From Escherichia coli (GTDB taxonomy: Bacteria; Pseudomonadota; Gammaproteobacteria; Enterobacterales; Enterobacteriaceae): a DNA stretch of 64,000 nucleotides. The first letter of the stretch is position 1. Every line of letters starts with the position of its first letter. The stretch lies in assembly GCF_044324875.1 (NCBI RefSeq), contig NZ_CP172185.1, one strand, 5' to 3'. The notes under the pieces are model-generated. The model searched no databases and had not been told where the DNA came from. It saw only the letters and a list, made by a program, of their open reading frames with translations. Made by a program: the position numbers and the translations under genes. This document shows, in pieces, positions 1,521-45,185 of the stretch.

Positions 1521-1757
1521 GTGAAGTTTATGCTCAATGCAACAGGATTGCCCTTACAAGATCTGGTGTTCGGTGCGTCCGTCTACTTTCCTCCGTTTTT
1601 CAAAGCCTTCGCGTTTGGATTCGTCATCTGGCTTGTCGTACACCGCCTGCTTCGTGGCTGGATCTACGCCGGTGACATCTGGCATCCCTTGTTAATGGAT
1701 TTATCGCTGTTTGCGATTTGCGTTTGCCTTGCCCTGGCAATACTGATTGCGTGGTAA
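1521..1757 (+). CDS. ydhI: small inner-membrane protein (DUF1656-type)
   Basis: 78-aa hydrophobic ORF immediately upstream of ydhJ; synteny. Confidence 0.8.
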
Positions 1758-39170: not shown

Positions 39171-39421
39171 TGAAAGCATACCGCTATTCCGGCCCGGCCA
39201 GCGGCGTCACGCTGTCGGACGGAACCGAAATCCTGCTCTGGCCGGGGAAGACGTTTTCCCTGCCGGAGGAGCATGACTACGTGAAGGTACTGGTGGCGCT
39301 GAAACATCTGACGCCGGTACCTGAAGAGACTAAACTCGCCGGCACACCGGCTGTGCAGTCACCAAAGCGCAGAAGCAGCAGTGACAGCGAAGTGAAAACG
39401 GAGGACACCCATGGCAGCTAA
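39167..39421 (+). CDS. hypothetical protein (84 aa)
   Basis: ORF with overlapping start/stop in late operon. Confidence 0.4.
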   Translation: MMKAYRYSGPASGVTLSDGTEILLWPGKTFSLPEEHDYVKVLVALKHLTPVPEETKLAGTPAVQSPKRRSSSDSEVKTEDTHGS

Positions 39422-40838
39422 CTATCTGCATGGTCCCGAAACCATTGAGGTGGAAAACGGTGCCCGCCCGGTTAAAACGGTGAAATCTGCCGTTATTGGC
39501 CTGATTGGTACCGCCCCGATGGGGGACGTCAATACGCTGGTACAGTGCCTGTCTGAGAAAGACGCAGCGGCATTTGGCAGCCAGTTCACCGGCTTTACCA
39601 TTCCGCAGGCGCTGGATGCGATTTATGACCATGGTGCAGGCACCGTTCTGGTCATTAACGTCCTCGACCCGGCGAAACATAAAACGGCGATCCAGGGTGA
39701 AGTGGTTACCTTTGACAAATCGACAGGGCAGGCCAGACTTGCGCATCCGGTTGTCGCTAATGTGGTGGTGAAAAACAGTGAAGGCAGCACCACCCACACG
39801 GCGAACACGGACTACCGTGTTGATGCGCAGGCGGGTGTGCTCACGAACCTGGGCAAGGCTATTGAGGCCGGTGGCAGCGTGAAGGTGAGCTATGAGTACG
39901 CGGACCCGTCGAAGGTGACTGCGGCGGACATCATCGGCGGGGTGAACAGCGCCGGAAACCGAACCGGCATGAAGCTGCTTAACGACAGCTTCAACCTGTA
40001 CGGCTATTTTGCCAAAATTCTGATTGCGCCGGTGTTCTGCACCCAGAAGAGTGTAGCAGTTGAGCTTATCGCCATGACAGAGAAGCTGGGCGCGGTAACC
40101 TACATTGATGCGCCTGTCGGTACCACCTTTGCACAGGCTCTGGCAGGTCGTGGCCCGGAAGGCACCATTAACTTCAATACCAGCTCCGACCGCGTCCGTC
40201 TGTGCTATCCGCATGTGAAGGTATATGACCCGGTGACAAACACGGAGCGTCTGGAGCCGCTCAGCCAGCGTGCAGCAGGTCTGCGTGCCAGAGTCGATCT
40301 GGACAAGGGCTACTGGTGGTCATCCTCCAATCAGGAGATTCTGGGGATCACCGGCGTGGAGCGCCAGCTGTCCGCGATGATTGATGACCCGCAGAGTGAG
40401 GTGAACCTGCTTAACGAACAGGGGATCACCACGGTATTCAGCAGTTACGGCAGCGGCCTTCGTCTGTGGGGTAACCGGACGGCAGCATGGCCAACGGTCA
40501 CCCATATGCGTAACTTTGAGAACGTTCGCCGCACCGGTGATGTGATCAACGAGTCCATTCGTTATTTCAGCCAGCAGTACATCGACATGCCGATTACTCA
40601 GGCGCTGATTGATGCACTGACGGAGTCGGTCAACGCCTACGGTCGCAAAATGACTGGTGATGGTGCGGTACTGGGCTTCCGTTGCTGGTTTGATCCGGCC
40701 CGCAATCCGGAGACGGAGCTGGCCGCCGGGCACCTGTTGCTGAGCTACAAATATACGCCACCACCGCCGCTGGAGCGACTGACGTTTGAGACTGAGATCA
40801 CCTCGGAATACCTGTTAACCCTGAAAGGGGGCAACTGA
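39411..40838 (+). CDS. contractile tail sheath protein
   Basis: 475-aa ORF immediately before tail tube gene. Confidence 0.75.
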   Translation: MAANYLHGPETIEVENGARPVKTVKSAVIGLIGTAPMGDVNTLVQCLSEKDAAAFGSQFTGFTIPQALDAIYDHGAGTVLVINVLDPAKHKTAIQGEVVTFDKSTGQARLAHPVVANVVVKNSEGSTTHTANTDYRVDAQAGVLTNLGKAIEAGGSVKVSYEYADPSKVTAADIIGGVNSAGNRTGMKLLNDSFNLYGYFAKILIAPVFCTQKSVAVELIAMTEKLGAVTYIDAPVGTTFAQALAGRGPEGTINFNTSSDRVRLCYPHVKVYDPVTNTERLEPLSQRAAGLRARVDLDKGYWWSSSNQEILGITGVERQLSAMIDDPQSEVNLLNEQGITTVFSSYGSGLRLWGNRTAAWPTVTHMRNFENVRRTGDVINESIRYFSQQYIDMPITQALIDALTESVNAYGRKMTGDGAVLGFRCWFDPARNPETELAAGHLLLSYKYTPPPPLERLTFETEITSEYLLTLKGGN

Positions 40839-41359
40839 TGTCAAAGATTGAGATAAACCGCATCACGAATGCCAACATCTATCTGGATGGTACTAACCTG
40901 CTGGGACGGGCTGAGGAAGTTAAACTCCCCGATGTCTCCATGATTATGCAGGAACACAAGGCGCTGGGGATGGTGGGTAAGGTGGAACTCCCGGCTGGTT
41001 TTGACAAACTGGAAGGCGAAATCAAATGGAACAGCTTTTACCGCGATGCGATGCTGTCTGCCGCGAACCCGTACAGGTCGCTGGCACTGCAGTGTCGTTC
41101 CAGCGTCCAGCGCTACAGCTCGCAGGGGCTGATTGACGAAATCCCGCTGGTCACCTTCCTGACGATTATGTTCAAGAAGAACCCGCTGGGGACGTTCAAA
41201 CAGCACGAGAACGCCGAGTTCTCCAGTAGCTTCACATGCACGTATATCAGACAGGTACTGGATGGTGAAGAGCTGCTGCAACTGGACTATCTGGCCAACA
41301 TCTTCCGGGTCGGCGGTGTTGATCAACTGACTGACTACCGTATCAATATCGGGGGCTGA
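40838..41359 (+). CDS. tail tube protein
   Basis: 173-aa ORF after sheath. Confidence 0.7.
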   Translation: MSKIEINRITNANIYLDGTNLLGRAEEVKLPDVSMIMQEHKALGMVGKVELPAGFDKLEGEIKWNSFYRDAMLSAANPYRSLALQCRSSVQRYSSQGLIDEIPLVTFLTIMFKKNPLGTFKQHENAEFSSSFTCTYIRQVLDGEELLQLDYLANIFRVGGVDQLTDYRINIGG

Positions 41360-41740: not shown

Positions 41741-42076
41741 ATGTCACAGACCCCATCCGATACTTTTAAATTGTCTTATCCCTTCACCACTGCTGCAGGC
41801 ACCAGAATTGAGCTGGTTGAACTGAAACGCCTGACGGTAAAAGACCTGAAGCAGGTGCGCAAAATCAGCAAAAACCCGGCAGACTGGGACGAACCGCTGA
41901 TTGCCCGCAGTACTGGTCTTCTCCCGGAAGATCTCGACAATATGGATCTGGCTGATTACCTGCAGTTACAGAAACGATTTCAGCTCATCACGGGGATGGG
42001 TGAGAGCGACAAAGGCGCTGACGCAGGCGCAGGGGCTGCTGGCGAGATGGTTCCGGTTTCAGCCGGGGGAGATTGA
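41741..42076 (+). CDS. tail assembly chaperone (gpE/gpG-like)
   Basis: 111-aa acidic ORF between tube and tape measure; overlapping ORF 41901..42158 in +1 frame. Confidence 0.5.
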   Translation: MSQTPSDTFKLSYPFTTAAGTRIELVELKRLTVKDLKQVRKISKNPADWDEPLIARSTGLLPEDLDNMDLADYLQLQKRFQLITGMGESDKGADAGAGAAGEMVPVSAGGD

Positions 42077-42233
42077 TGCCCTCGATACTGACGATCTGGA
42101 GATGTGGCTGGAGCAGGCTGAAGAGCAAATAAAAAGCGAGTACGGCGACAAATCATAGTACAGACAGCCGCCAGTAGCGGCTGTTCTGCGTTATCCCCTC
42201 ACGTCTTTTCACCTTCCCCGGAGGTTAACCACT

Positions 42234-45185
42234 ATGTCGGGACAGTTTTCAGTCGGCGTTGTTATCGGCGGGATGATTGGCAGCACATTCCGTTCTGCAA
42301 TGAGCGGTACCCGCCGTGCGCTTGATTCCCTGAGCGATACCTCACGCCGCCTGCAGGAACGTCAGAACGCTTTAACCCGTGCAACAGAACGTTATGGTCA
42401 ACTGGGCTCTTCCCGGATGCAGCATCTCAACAGCGAGCTGCTGCGGGTAAGCCGCACCATGGAGCAAATTGAGCGCCAGCAGCGCCGTCTGTCAGCGGCA
42501 TCAGCCACCAGTGATGCGCTGAAAGCTAACCGCATGGCGCTGTATGGTCAGGGGATTGAAGCGTATGGCATGGCACAGACTGTTTATCATACGGTTTCCC
42601 CTGCCGTTCAGCAGTCCATGTCTTTTCAGGACAAAATGATTGATATGTCGATCACCGCAAAATATGACAATAAAACGCGGGATGCACTTGCCGGACAGAT
42701 AAAAGGCTGGGCGCAAAAATACAATCAGTATCAGGATGAACTGCAGGAGGCGGTGGGTTCGCTCATCAGCGACAATATTGATAACTTGTCAGATATCGGT
42801 TTTCTGATGCCGGATATTGCCCGCGCGGCAACGGCAACACGCACGTCATCTCAGGACTGGGCAAAAGTGGCCGCAGTCTGGCAAAACTCCCTGAAAGGTG
42901 CGGCCAGAGATTTTAGTGCCGTCCAGAATATTATGGCTTATGCCGGTGACCAGGGGTCATTTGAAATCCCGGATCAGGTCAAGTGGATGCAGTCCCTGGC
43001 CCCAATGATGGCGGGTATTGCCAGTGGAAAAGAGGCTGTTGCTGAAATCGGGGCCAGTCTCCAGATAGCAAAAATCGGTGCGGGCTCCACCGACGAAGCA
43101 GCCAATAATTTTAAAAACTTTCTTACCAAAATTTTTGCCCGCGATACTCAGAAACAGTTTGCTGATCTGGGTATTGATTTGCAGGGTTCTGTTGCGAGTT
43201 ATAAGGCTGCGGGGATCTCTCCGATTGAAGGGATGTTGAGTGTTATAGAACGTTACCTCAATGCCAAAAGCCCCGAAGCGCTGGCCGGCTTCAAATCCGC
43301 CATGAAAATAAAGAATGATACGGCAAGAGATGAGGCACTTCAGGCTCTGGCGAAAAACTTTGGTCTGGGCGATATGTTCGCGGATATGCAGGTCATGGCA
43401 TTTATCCGCCCGATGCTGGCCAACATGGACAGATATCGCGAGATCCGTGCCGGTGCTCTCAGGGCTGCGGATAACGATTTGCTTGCCAGTGCTTACGATC
43501 AGCGGCTGAAATCTCCCCTTGAAGCCACTAAAGCGCTTATGGTCAGCAGTCGCGATCTGGCTATTACGCTGGGCGATCAGCTCGCCCCCTCTTTTATTTC
43601 TCTGACTCAGGAGCTGATCCCACTCATTCAGGGGGCAAAACACTGGGTGGCGACTCACCCGCAATTTGTCAGTGGGGCTTTTAAGCTCATCAGTGCGCTC
43701 CTTGCGATTAAGATAGCGACTGTTGGTCTCAAACTGGGGCTGAATCTCCTTATTTCCCCCTTTGTGAACGTCTGGAAAACTGCTGTTTTACTCCGGACCA
43801 ACTGGCATCGACTGACTACCGCACTAGGAGAAGGTGGCAAATTACGCTGGCTTGTCACTGGATTTAGCCGACTGACCAGCGGAGGACTGAAACTCAGCAA
43901 AGTTCTGGCGGGCAGCCTCGTTCGCGGTTTTATGAGCGCTGCACGTGCCGTTCTCTGGATTGGGCGAGCGCTGATGATGAATCCCATCGGTCTCGTTATC
44001 ACCGCTGTCGCGGCAGCAGCTTACCTTATCTACCGCAACTGGGGGACAGTCAGTGGCTGGTTTAAACAGCGCTGGGCTGACATTCAGGAAGCCTTTAACG
44101 GCGGTATCGCGGGAACTGGTAAGCTGCTGATTAACTGGTCGCCGGCAGGGCTGCTCTATAAAGCCTTTGCGGCTGCGCTGAAATATTTCGGCGTTGCTCT
44201 GCCGGCAAAGTTCACCGACTTCGGTGGCCATCTTGTCGACGGTCTGATTAACGGTATCAAAAACAAATGGGGGTCGCTCAAATCCAGTGTAACCGGAATG
44301 GGTGACAGCATCAGTAGCTGGTTTAAACAGTGCTGGTCTGACATTCAGGAGGCCTTTAACGGCGGTATCGCGGGAACTGGTAAGCTGCTGATTAACTGGT
44401 CGCCGGCAGGTCTGCTCTATAAAGCCTTTGCAGCTGCGCTGAAATATCTTGGTGTTGATCTGCCGGCAAAGTTCACCGACTTCGGTGGCCATCTTGTCGA
44501 CGGTCTGATTAACGGTATCAAAAACAAATGGGAGTCGCTCAAATCCAGTGTAACCGGAATGGGTGACAGCATCAGTGGCTGGTTCAGTGAAAAGCTGGGT
44601 ATTCATTCGCCGAGCCGCGTGTTTATGGGCTTTGGTGACAATATCGCGCAGGGGGCCGCCATTGGCCTGCAGCGGAGCACTCCGATTGCAGCTCTGGCCG
44701 GGCAGCGAATGGCCAGTGAACTGCTCCCCAGAATGCCCGTGAGCATTCAGGGGCCAGAAATACGGGATAACACTTCAGGTGTTCGCTTCAGTATGCCGTT
44801 GCCCGATATCAACGGGTTTATGTCGTCTGCTAAAAATGCGATCGGATCCGTAATCAATAGTTTGTCTTCCATGCCCGCTATTCCGATCTCCACCCGGGCA
44901 TCGACTTTACCAGGTCAACGTCTGGCAAATGAGATGACACCGGATGTTCCCCGTATCCCCTCGCCTGAAATCCTGGCTGCCGGATATTCAGGCCGTGGTG
45001 CAGCTGCAACCGGCGGTGGAACGTCTGGTGGTATCCAGGTCAGCTTTAATCCTCAGTTTTTCCTCAATGGCAGGGAAACCACAGCGCCTGCAGGACTGAC
45101 TGGTGCCCTGAATATGAGTCTGCATGAGCTGGAAAAAATGCTGGAGCGTCTGCTGGCTCAGAAACAACGTAAGGAGTACCGCTGA
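42234..45185 (+). CDS. tail tape measure protein
   Basis: 983-aa ORF with coiled-coil N-terminus, TM segments and internal tandem duplication. Confidence 0.8.
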   Translation: MSGQFSVGVVIGGMIGSTFRSAMSGTRRALDSLSDTSRRLQERQNALTRATERYGQLGSSRMQHLNSELLRVSRTMEQIERQQRRLSAASATSDALKANRMALYGQGIEAYGMAQTVYHTVSPAVQQSMSFQDKMIDMSITAKYDNKTRDALAGQIKGWAQKYNQYQDELQEAVGSLISDNIDNLSDIGFLMPDIARAATATRTSSQDWAKVAAVWQNSLKGAARDFSAVQNIMAYAGDQGSFEIPDQVKWMQSLAPMMAGIASGKEAVAEIGASLQIAKIGAGSTDEAANNFKNFLTKIFARDTQKQFADLGIDLQGSVASYKAAGISPIEGMLSVIERYLNAKSPEALAGFKSAMKIKNDTARDEALQALAKNFGLGDMFADMQVMAFIRPMLANMDRYREIRAGALRAADNDLLASAYDQRLKSPLEATKALMVSSRDLAITLGDQLAPSFISLTQELIPLIQGAKHWVATHPQFVSGAFKLISALLAIKIATVGLKLGLNLLISPFVNVWKTAVLLRTNWHRLTTALGEGGKLRWLVTGFSRLTSGGLKLSKVLAGSLVRGFMSAARAVLWIGRALMMNPIGLVITAVAAAAYLIYRNWGTVSGWFKQRWADIQEAFNGGIAGTGKLLINWSPAGLLYKAFAAALKYFGVALPAKFTDFGGHLVDGLINGIKNKWGSLKSSVTGMGDSISSWFKQCWSDIQEAFNGGIAGTGKLLINWSPAGLLYKAFAAALKYLGVDLPAKFTDFGGHLVDGLINGIKNKWESLKSSVTGMGDSISGWFSEKLGIHSPSRVFMGFGDNIAQGAAIGLQRSTPIAALAGQRMASELLPRMPVSIQGPEIRDNTSGVRFSMPLPDINGFMSSAKNAIGSVINSLSSMPAIPISTRASTLPGQRLANEMTPDVPRIPSPEILAAGYSGRGAAATGGGTSGGIQVSFNPQFFLNGRETTAPAGLTGALNMSLHELEKMLERLLAQKQRKEYR
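44058..44590 (+). repeat. 240-bp tandem duplication inside tape measure gene (two full units plus start of a third)
   Basis: Protein repeat WFKQ(R/C)W(A/S)DIQEAFNGGIAGTGKLLINWSPAGLLYKAFAAALKY... occurs twice 80 aa apart. Confidence 0.7.

Follow-up and report, generated by a model that had tools for sequence, protein, structure and literature searches.

A probable +1 frameshift at an invariant UUU_C joins a P2 E'-type domain to the tail assembly chaperone of a BcepMu-like Escherichia coli prophage

Described chaperone frameshifts and the locus in the window

Different tailed phages obtain their two tail assembly chaperone products by shifting -1, -2 or +1 (PMC5009743). We analysed a candidate case in Escherichia coli, in a stretch of 64,000 nucleotides (nt) of contig NZ_CP172185.1 (assembly GCF_044324875.1; the window hereafter means this whole stretch), which includes a BcepMu-like (Bcepmuvirus) prophage whose tail assembly chaperone gene is overlapped by a second open reading frame (ORF). 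The locus is another frameshifted tail assembly chaperone of a known class, belonging to the P2 gpE/E' domain family, and neither the direction of its shift, nor a +1 UUU_C site, nor the junction is annotated in this lineage. Judging from sequence comparison, we regard it as probable that two products are made, and that a +1 slip of peptidyl-tRNAPhe at CGA_UUU_C yields a fusion of 138 amino acids (aa) with a TAC_7 and a GpE domain.

In phage P2 (NC_001895), gpE (91 aa) and gpE+E' (142 aa) are made through a verified -1 frameshift at G_TTT_TTG, and Pfam places TAC_7 at residues 7-85 and GpE at residues 104-139. The P2 gene resembles that of the window in its position after the tube gene (FII) and ahead of the tape measure gene (T), in having TAC_7 followed by GpE at the same spacing (91/142 aa versus 111 and a predicted 138 aa), and in a shift, proposed in the case of the window, at the C-terminal edge of TAC_7 with a Phe UUU codon involved. 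It differs in that P2 shifts -1 on a tandem heptamer, whereas the window would shift +1 on UUU_C, in a sequence identity of ~19%, and in that the P2 shift lies 6 codons before the E stop with a short overlap, while the one proposed here would lie 32 codons before the stop, with an overlap of 96 nt. No T-rich heptamer for a -1 shift of the P2 kind was found at the locus studied here, where the extension is in the +1 frame. Homology between the slippery Phe codon of P2 and Phe80 of the window's chaperone was considered and dropped, the hhalign match being weak (E = 0.016) and offset by 3-4 residues; the likeness claimed is limited to the same domain edge.

Phage Mu provides a second comparison, the joined coding sequence in its record AF083977 carrying the remark 'verified -2 translational frameshift in PMID 15469818'. 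In Mu, the extension occupies the +1/-2 frame, with CGG GGG CGA in the zero frame. Mu and the window share a Mu-like myovirus tail module with the chaperone upstream of the tape measure gene and a +1/-2 extension, and Mu has a weak TAC_7 match. However, Mu slips on CGGGGGCGA, whereas the run of five G (G5) in the window is not conserved; PF23746 is matched by Mu gp41, a member of that family (E = 9e-35), but not by the window's chaperone; and the Mu extension, unlike that of the window, has no GpE similarity. The first-pass annotation of the locus had called a shift in this direction non-canonical, which is fair in so far as it is unusual, but the -2 shift of Mu into the +1 frame and the review's list of -1, -2 and +1 shifts are precedents for it.

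For lambda gpG/gpGT, the work of Xu, Hendrix & Duda (2004, 2013, 2014), as reviewed in PMC5009743, describes a -1 shift on G_GGA_AAG. As in lambda, the two products of the window would share their N-terminus, their ratio would be fixed by low-level frameshifting, their gene lies directly ahead of the tape measure gene and their function is presumed to be the same; unlike lambda, the shift would not be -1, and there is no sequence similarity. The position of the chaperone gene, between the tube and tape measure genes, fits a frameshifted chaperone of the lambda G/GT type.

Sites of the form UUU_Ynn are especially +1-prone in bacteria even without a stop codon (PMC5009743), and described examples comprise E. 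coli error sites, the influenza PA-X +1 site UCC_UUU_CGU and a proposed Yersinia YopN-TyeA site, UUU_UGG (PMC5009743, PMC3789692); the last is disputed, mutation of UUU_UGG not having abolished the hybrid. These sites are like the candidate in the window in that tRNAPhe would move from UUU to UUC or UUU with no 3' structure, and the Burkholderia relatives carry TCC_TTT_CGC. They are unlike it in being translational errors, a eukaryotic virus site or a disputed site, none of them in a phage tail chaperone.

Finally, Pasteurella phage AFS-2018a (MH238466) has a homologous sheath, a TAC_7 chaperone (34% identity) and a GpE-like extension, but its extension lies in the -1 frame, after a canonical A_AAG_GGA heptamer at the stop (L011 ~1720..1745). 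The direction of frameshifting therefore changes within this chaperone family. The -1-frame extension is unannotated in the AFS-2018a record.

Conservation of the overlapping frame and the domain it encodes

We assembled a comparative set from four viral-contig scans and phage records, amounting to 164 loci and 81 unique sequences in five clades: enteric, Salmonella-type, Ralstonia, Pseudomonas and Burkholderia (BcepMu, phiE255). The 164 loci do not include AFS-2018a, whose record was retrieved on its own. The first-pass annotation had placed ORFs 41741..42076 and 41901..42158 in +1 relation, and these coordinates, the peptide that it quoted and the G5 run were all recovered. The second ORF spans 85 codons from TTG 41901 to TAG 42156-42158, in the frame that is offset by one base downstream (+1, equal to -2), and ends ...QPGEIDALDTDDLEMWLEQAEEQIKSEYGDKS.

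The zero-frame product of 111 aa matched Phage_TAC_7 (PF10109; residues 8-81) at 74.8 bits against a gathering cutoff of 25, a family whose Pfam text reads 'tail assembly chaperone proteins E, or 41 or 14' (P2 gpE, Mu gp41). With the tape measure gene starting at 42234, this upholds the earlier call of a tail assembly chaperone just upstream of the tape measure. Beyond it, residues 81-111 are a tail of variable sequence rich in Gly and Ala, and from Phe to the stop the zero-frame tail measured 9-36 codons among the relatives.

A comparison of the overlap region in related phages, which the first-pass annotation had proposed, showed the +1 ORF to be strongly conserved, well beyond what chance would give, and open from Phe80 to its own stop in 81/81 unique relatives. 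It matched phrog_8286 (E = 9e-34), and the E'-like domain sat in the +1 frame at every one of the 164 loci, in all five clades. We then read selection from the ratio of nonsynonymous to synonymous change (pN/pS) in a sliding analysis of 40 unique enteric sequences. In the zero frame, pN/pS was 0.02-0.5 up to ~41975 and exceeded 1 from 42017 on, reaching values as high as 21; in the +1 frame, it exceeded 1 before 41955, was 0.3-0.5 from ~41987 and fell to 0.00-0.08 over 42023-42076. Open frames and purifying selection thus both support the earlier placing of a second product in the +1/-2 frame. The -1 frame, which the first-pass annotation had found unconvincing, is indeed not credible, with only a short run to about 42129 and pN/pS >1.

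The same switch was seen in phylogeny-aware counts of substitutions that are synonymous in one frame only (63 unique enteric sequences). The ratio of zero-frame to +1-frame synonymous-only changes was 416:75 upstream of the site, 19:20 from Phe+1 to Phe+6, 24:55 from Phe+7 to Phe+12 (p = 6e-4) and 14:103 from Phe+13 to Phe+31 (42018-42073; binomial p = 6e-18), and both GC-rich clades had the same frame polarity as the enterics. The frame of purifying selection switches around the TTT_C site. A +1-frame Trp was present 3-6 codons past Phe in 80/81 unique sequences (at +1 and +4 in the Ralstonia relative L009), and its codon, TGG 41997-41999, had 0 inferred substitutions, against 9 for the overlapping zero-frame codon in the 63 enteric sequences. 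Moreover, in the KP12 clade a change from TTC CGG to TTT AGA, silent in the +1 frame (Phe-Arg), makes a TAG in the zero frame.

This conserved overlapping ORF has no conserved start of its own, as in the lambda G/GT type: at the best aligned position a start codon was present in 23/82 unique sequences, and 8 sequences had none. This bears on the RefSeq view, under which no frameshift takes place and the +1 ORF is a small gene of its own (GTG 42000..42158). The Prokaryotic Genome Annotation Pipeline (PGAP) calls the ORF separately in some genomes, phrog_8286 gathers calls of 52-54 aa of this ORF, and a GGGGA stretch lies just upstream of GTG 42000. However, GTG 42000 is absent from most relatives (GCA in the KP12 type), the start codon is conserved nowhere, and the 8 unique sequences with no ATG, GTG or TTG upstream of the domain include the whole Pseudomonas clade. 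Conservation of the +1 frame, with Trp 41997, starts upstream of GTG 42000, and the homologous domain of P2 has been verified as made only in fusion (NC_001895). We consider a stand-alone gene to be quite unlikely. On identical DNA (L177, L178), PGAP is inconsistent, giving a stand-alone 52-aa protein (WP_001202894.1) in some genomes, nothing in others and the fusion in none.

Several comparisons identify the domain encoded by the distal +1 ORF. The window's own sequence matched PF06528 (Phage_P2_GpE) with E = 0.008 to 0.0016 and at best 18.4 bits, under the 23-bit cutoff, while 12/24 diverse family members matched it individually (best E = 3.9e-14), and a profile of 24 relatives aligned with P2 E' in hhalign at 93.7% probability (E = 1.8e-7). 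Pfam and hhalign alignments both start at ...(Q)GLLARWFRFQPGE, ~10 codons upstream of the G5 run. The RefSeq name in some genomes, 'GpE family phage tail protein', is given to a stand-alone coding sequence. On these profile matches the distal +1 ORF is a P2 E'-type (GpE, PF06528-like) domain, the second domain of the tail assembly chaperone, so that the C-terminal extension is a GpE domain as in gpE+E' of P2. In the predicted 138-aa fusion, Pfam placed TAC_7 at residues 8-82 (79.3 bits) and GpE at 100-132. NCBIfam gave no match.

Structure prediction agreed with this arrangement. The AlphaFold2 model of the fusion (29-sequence alignment) had a mean predicted local distance difference test score (pLDDT) of 89.6 and a predicted template modelling score (pTM) of 0.80, with residues 81-130 at 89-96 and helices at 81-88, 90-104, 108-112 and 116-137. 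The model of the zero-frame product, built from an equivalent alignment, had a mean pLDDT of 74.8 and a pTM of 0.60; pLDDT was 83-89 to residue 80 and 41-48 for residues 88-111. The models are consistent with a folded protein encoded by the +1 frame directly past Phe80, and with zero-frame residues 88-111 as a disordered, evolutionarily unconstrained leftover. A PDB sequence search returned no match, and Foldseek with the model nothing meaningful (best E = 0.35).

Position of the shift and the candidate slip site

Because of the stops in both frames and the invariant +1-frame Trp codon, the shift is confined to about 41972..41996, provided that the family uses one common site. The lower bound is set by 10/81 unique sequences (Ralstonia L009, L144 and the Pseudomonas clade), in which the +1 frame opens only 3 codons ahead of Phe. 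At the other end, the zero frame terminates 9 codons past Phe80 in L133/L134, 11 codons past it in L028/L030 and further on in the GTT TAG clade. Any of the four bases may come directly after TTTCGC in the Burkholderia clade; for the +1 frame this is the silent third position of a GCN Ala codon, while zero-frame reading turns the variation into S/L/R/G/C/D. The frames, their conservation, the domain identities and these bounds are what the sequences show.

Within the permitted interval, TTT_C (41978..41981) was the sole invariant element, present at 164/164 loci. Its contexts were NNN CGA TTT CA[G/A/T] in the enterics, CGA TTT CTG in Ralstonia, GTG TTT CGG in Pseudomonas and [T/G]CC TTT CGC in Burkholderia (TCC_TTT_CGC in BcepMu). 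CGA and TTT were each invariant in 40/40 unique enteric sequences, with variation at adjacent synonymous sites, and the 7 nt CGATTTC had 0 inferred substitutions in the 63 unique enteric sequences versus ~8 synonymous events per upstream codon. TTT is a rare Phe codon in GC-rich relatives (TTT:TTC 4:30 in BcepMu and 1:23 in Komp_PAO1_1), yet it is kept; CGA makes up 8/123 of the Arg codons in the window's tail genes. Regarding a slippery sequence of the lambda G/GT type, the overlap holds no -1 heptamer, and the invariant TTT_C in the permitted interval, a known +1-prone motif, is a candidate.

We infer from these observations the exact site and the +1 rather than -2 direction. From the single start codon at 41741, two proteins would be made. 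Most ribosomes would stay in the zero frame to 42076 and produce the 111-aa chaperone, that is, the TAC_7 domain with a disordered, unconstrained tail. A minority would shift +1 at CGA_UUU_C (41975-41981), where peptidyl-tRNAPhe on UUU (41978-41980) would re-pair with the overlapping UUC (41979-41981) and decoding would resume at AGC (41982). In the predicted 138-aa fusion, ...LQKRF/SSSRGWVR...LLARWFRFQPGEIDALD...GDKS (the slash marks the junction), a short helical linker would connect the TAC_7 domain to a GpE domain of the P2 E' type. If lambda G/GT and P2 E/E+E' are a guide, the tape measure protein would be a binding partner of both products, with the extension serving to recruit tail-tube subunits, and UUU_C, through its intrinsic slipperiness, would keep the product ratio fixed and low; the efficiency and the function suggested here follow the lambda and P2 paradigms. 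A -2 slip at TTT_C appears implausible, since two bases back neither tRNAPhe nor the following tRNA would meet a cognate codon.

The first-pass annotation had put the junction near CCGGGGGAG, at the G5 run (GCC_GGG_GGA_G, 42062-42071), where +1 slippage on GGG_G or a Mu-like -2 slip on GGG_GGA would add 28-29 residues (EIDALD...GDKS). The run resembles the Mu site CGG_GGG_CGA, at which a -2 shift is verified, tRNAGly could re-pair perfectly there, the Ralstonia relative L009 has GGC_GGG_GGA_G just ahead of the domain, and in six public assemblies with G4 at this position the fusion with this junction is a plain ORF. However, G5 is no conserved feature of the zero-frame ORF, as a run of at least five G would be in a Mu-type site: it occurs in 28/81 unique relatives, the zero frame has terminated ahead of it in 36/81 (the GTT TAG clade and others), and G5 and an open zero frame are found together in only 14/81. 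Variants of CCGGGGGAG (CCT/CCA-GGG-GAG, CCG-AGT-GAG, CCC-AGT-GAA, CCG-TCC-GAG) all translate to Pro-Gly/Ser-Glu in +1. The conserved domain extends across the run, and a fusion joined there would lose the first ~13 GpE/E' positions, including LLARWFRFQPG, the best-conserved part. Moreover, purifying selection on the +1 frame is strong for ~20 codons upstream of G5, where zero-frame pN/pS is far >1. The G4 contigs differ from the window by single-base gaps only and some have broken tape-measure ORFs, a signature of homopolymer error. A shift at G5 is thus very improbable. The candidate TTT_C lies about 30 codons upstream of that junction, and with the shift at TTT_C the extension would measure 58 aa rather than the 28 aa first given.

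The six G4 assemblies (L171-L176, Logan assemblies from six sequencing runs) carry 1-3 single-base gaps relative to the window, and the G4 makes an in-frame 138-aa ORF (P0003) with exactly the junction of the first-pass annotation; this G4 is probably a systematic homopolymer error. Fused 138-aa ORFs in public data were also considered as evidence for the site and were set aside. Their junctions are scattered (the G5 run, a G4 run, CAGGGC and others) and they come from contigs with single-base gaps, often with other broken genes, for which reasons we regard them as homopolymer sequencing errors.

A lineage-specific shift a few codons downstream of TTT_C is a further alternative, and an unlikely one. 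At ACG_GGG_A (41990-41996), tRNAGly(UCC) would move from GGG to GGA and give ...QLITG/WVRAT..., a re-pairing plausible for a tRNA that reads GGA and GGG. This site lies within the permitted interval, directly ahead of the invariant Trp codon, substitutions favour neither frame from Phe+1 to Phe+6, and the erroneous public ORF P0006 has the GGG_A junction. The site is not conserved, however: the KP12-type clade has ACT_GGG_C there, Salmonella-type relatives have CTT_AGC_A, and the Burkholderia and Pseudomonas clades, with no more than 2-3 codons between Phe and Trp, lack it. A shift at GGG_A would need several independent origins, whereas TTT_C is invariant.

Several points weigh against the slip at CGA_UUU_C. 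The invariance of CGA is confined to the enteric and Ralstonia clades, and that of TTT could partly reflect Phe80, a nearly invariant residue of the domain. Substitutions from Phe+1 to Phe+6 do not tell the frames apart in the enterics, and in the Pseudomonas clade they lean 8:2 toward the zero frame (not significant). The junction position is itself a prediction, and AlphaFold confidence is no proof that a frame is translated. In addition, codon, Shine-Dalgarno and RNA structure checks found no stimulator of a shift at TTT_C, so that its efficiency could be very low. The next zero-frame codon, CAG, is common, and there is no rare codon there in the enterics; no Shine-Dalgarno-like element was visible upstream in CTGCAGTTACAGAAACGA. 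A 3' stimulatory RNA structure was rejected, the RNAalifold consensus of 17 diverse relatives reaching -6.7 kcal/mol with zero covariation and the single-sequence fold a z-score of -0.05.

One long-range pairing was seen at the site. CGAUUUC (41975..41981) could pair with GAGAUUG (42069..42075), 88 nt downstream, through 7 bp with two G-U pairs, and this was the consensus and only long-range helix in the 17 relatives, both arms being fixed by coding and showing no covariation. We rejected it as a stimulator, the pairing being accounted for by coding constraints.

Lineage, annotation and neighbouring genes

The locus is 99% identical to that of Escherichia phage PhiKM (genus Bcepmuvirus) and 100% identical to the E. 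coli AR_0085 chromosome, and near-identical copies were found in 636/5426 complete E. coli genomes (about 12%). Besides those ~12% of complete E. coli genomes, the BcepMu-like lineage occurs in Salmonella, Klebsiella, Ralstonia, Pseudomonas and Burkholderia. For this lineage as a whole, we lean towards a stimulator-free programmed +1 shift on (CGA_)UUU_C that would yield a gpE+E'-type chaperone, with the public annotations being wrong. A literature search whose coverage was incomplete found no paper on a +1 chaperone frameshift in BcepMu-like phages.

The BcepMu record (AY539836 / NC_005882) offers another scheme, in which the +1 ORF, gp42, is 'G', slippage into gp43 gives 'T', and the TAC_7 gene gp41 is separate. 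In the window, 75 nt lie between the extension stop and the tape measure start, with no gp43 equivalent, and the gp43 interval of phiE255 is annotated as a minus-strand membrane protein. Furthermore, P2 gpE has its TAC_7 homologue in gp41, and the conserved part of gp42 is the E' domain. This scheme is extremely improbable, and the annotation of the locus in the BcepMu type phage is probably wrong. The gp42/gp43 region corresponds to L003 5339..5844 in BcepMu and to L005 5545..5787 in phiE255.

The biology proposed here is textbook knowledge, in that tail assembly relies on a chaperone and its extended form in a fixed ratio, and the main value of the work lies in correct annotation, since the long product is nowhere annotated as a fusion although the prophage family is common. 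If the slip at UUU_C is real, the product ratio would have been conserved while slip chemistry and direction were swapped in evolution (-1 in P2 and AFS-2018a, -2 in Mu), and the locus would be a natural, deeply conserved bacterial case of programmed +1 shifting at UUU_Y. An invariant UUU_C with no detectable stimulator, in phages of beta- and gammaproteobacteria, would make a clean system for tRNAPhe +1 slippage, and the locus could address how a gene family switches among -1, -2 and +1 solutions. In practical terms, the proposed slippery site would lie ~30 codons upstream of the zero-frame stop, and predictors that search near the stop would miss such sites.

The features of the locus are collected in Table 1. 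Along the tail module, the tube gene is followed by a small ORF, the TAC_7 chaperone gene and the tape measure gene.

Table 1. Positions of the chaperone features and neighbouring tail genes in the window
Feature	Position	Strand	Basis or remark
Tail sheath gene	39411..40838		Upstream neighbour
Tail tube gene	40838..41359	+	PF04985, E = 3e-53
Small ORF, 93 aa	41362..41643		Between tube and chaperone genes; phrog_1239, E = 1e-47; DUF7739, 25 bits, under the 27-bit cutoff
Zero-frame chaperone ORF, 111 aa ('G'/gpE-type product)	41741..42076	+	ATG 41741, TGA 42074-42076; PF10109
Proposed +1 shift site CGA_TTT_C (UUU 41978-41980 to UUC 41979-41981)	41975..41981	+	Invariance; candidate
+1-frame extension after the proposed shift, 58 codons and stop: SSSRGWVRATKALTQAQGLLARWFRFQPGEIDALDTDDLEMWLEQAEEQIKSEYGDKS	41982..42158	+	pN/pS, fusion model
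TGG, +1-frame Trp, residue 86 of the predicted fusion	41997..41999	+	Marks +1-frame translation this far upstream
GpE / P2-E'-like domain, residues 100-132 of the predicted fusion	42039..42137	+	PF06528, hhalign, RefSeq name
G5 run, junction of the first-pass annotation	42065..42069	+	Read in +1, codes for Pro-Gly-Glu of the domain; not a conserved shift site
Tape measure gene, 983 aa	42234..45185	+	PF10145, phrog_28

PhiKM and KP12, both enteric relatives, have the small ORF between the tube and chaperone genes; BcepMu/phiE255 and a Salmonella Infantis prophage lack it. The tape measure gene contains a two-copy tandem duplication at 44050..44584 (unit of 261 nt, 87 aa; 95% identity), at the place of which the PhiKM record has a sequencing gap. 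Since tail length is set by the length of the tape measure, this duplication predicts a slightly longer tail.

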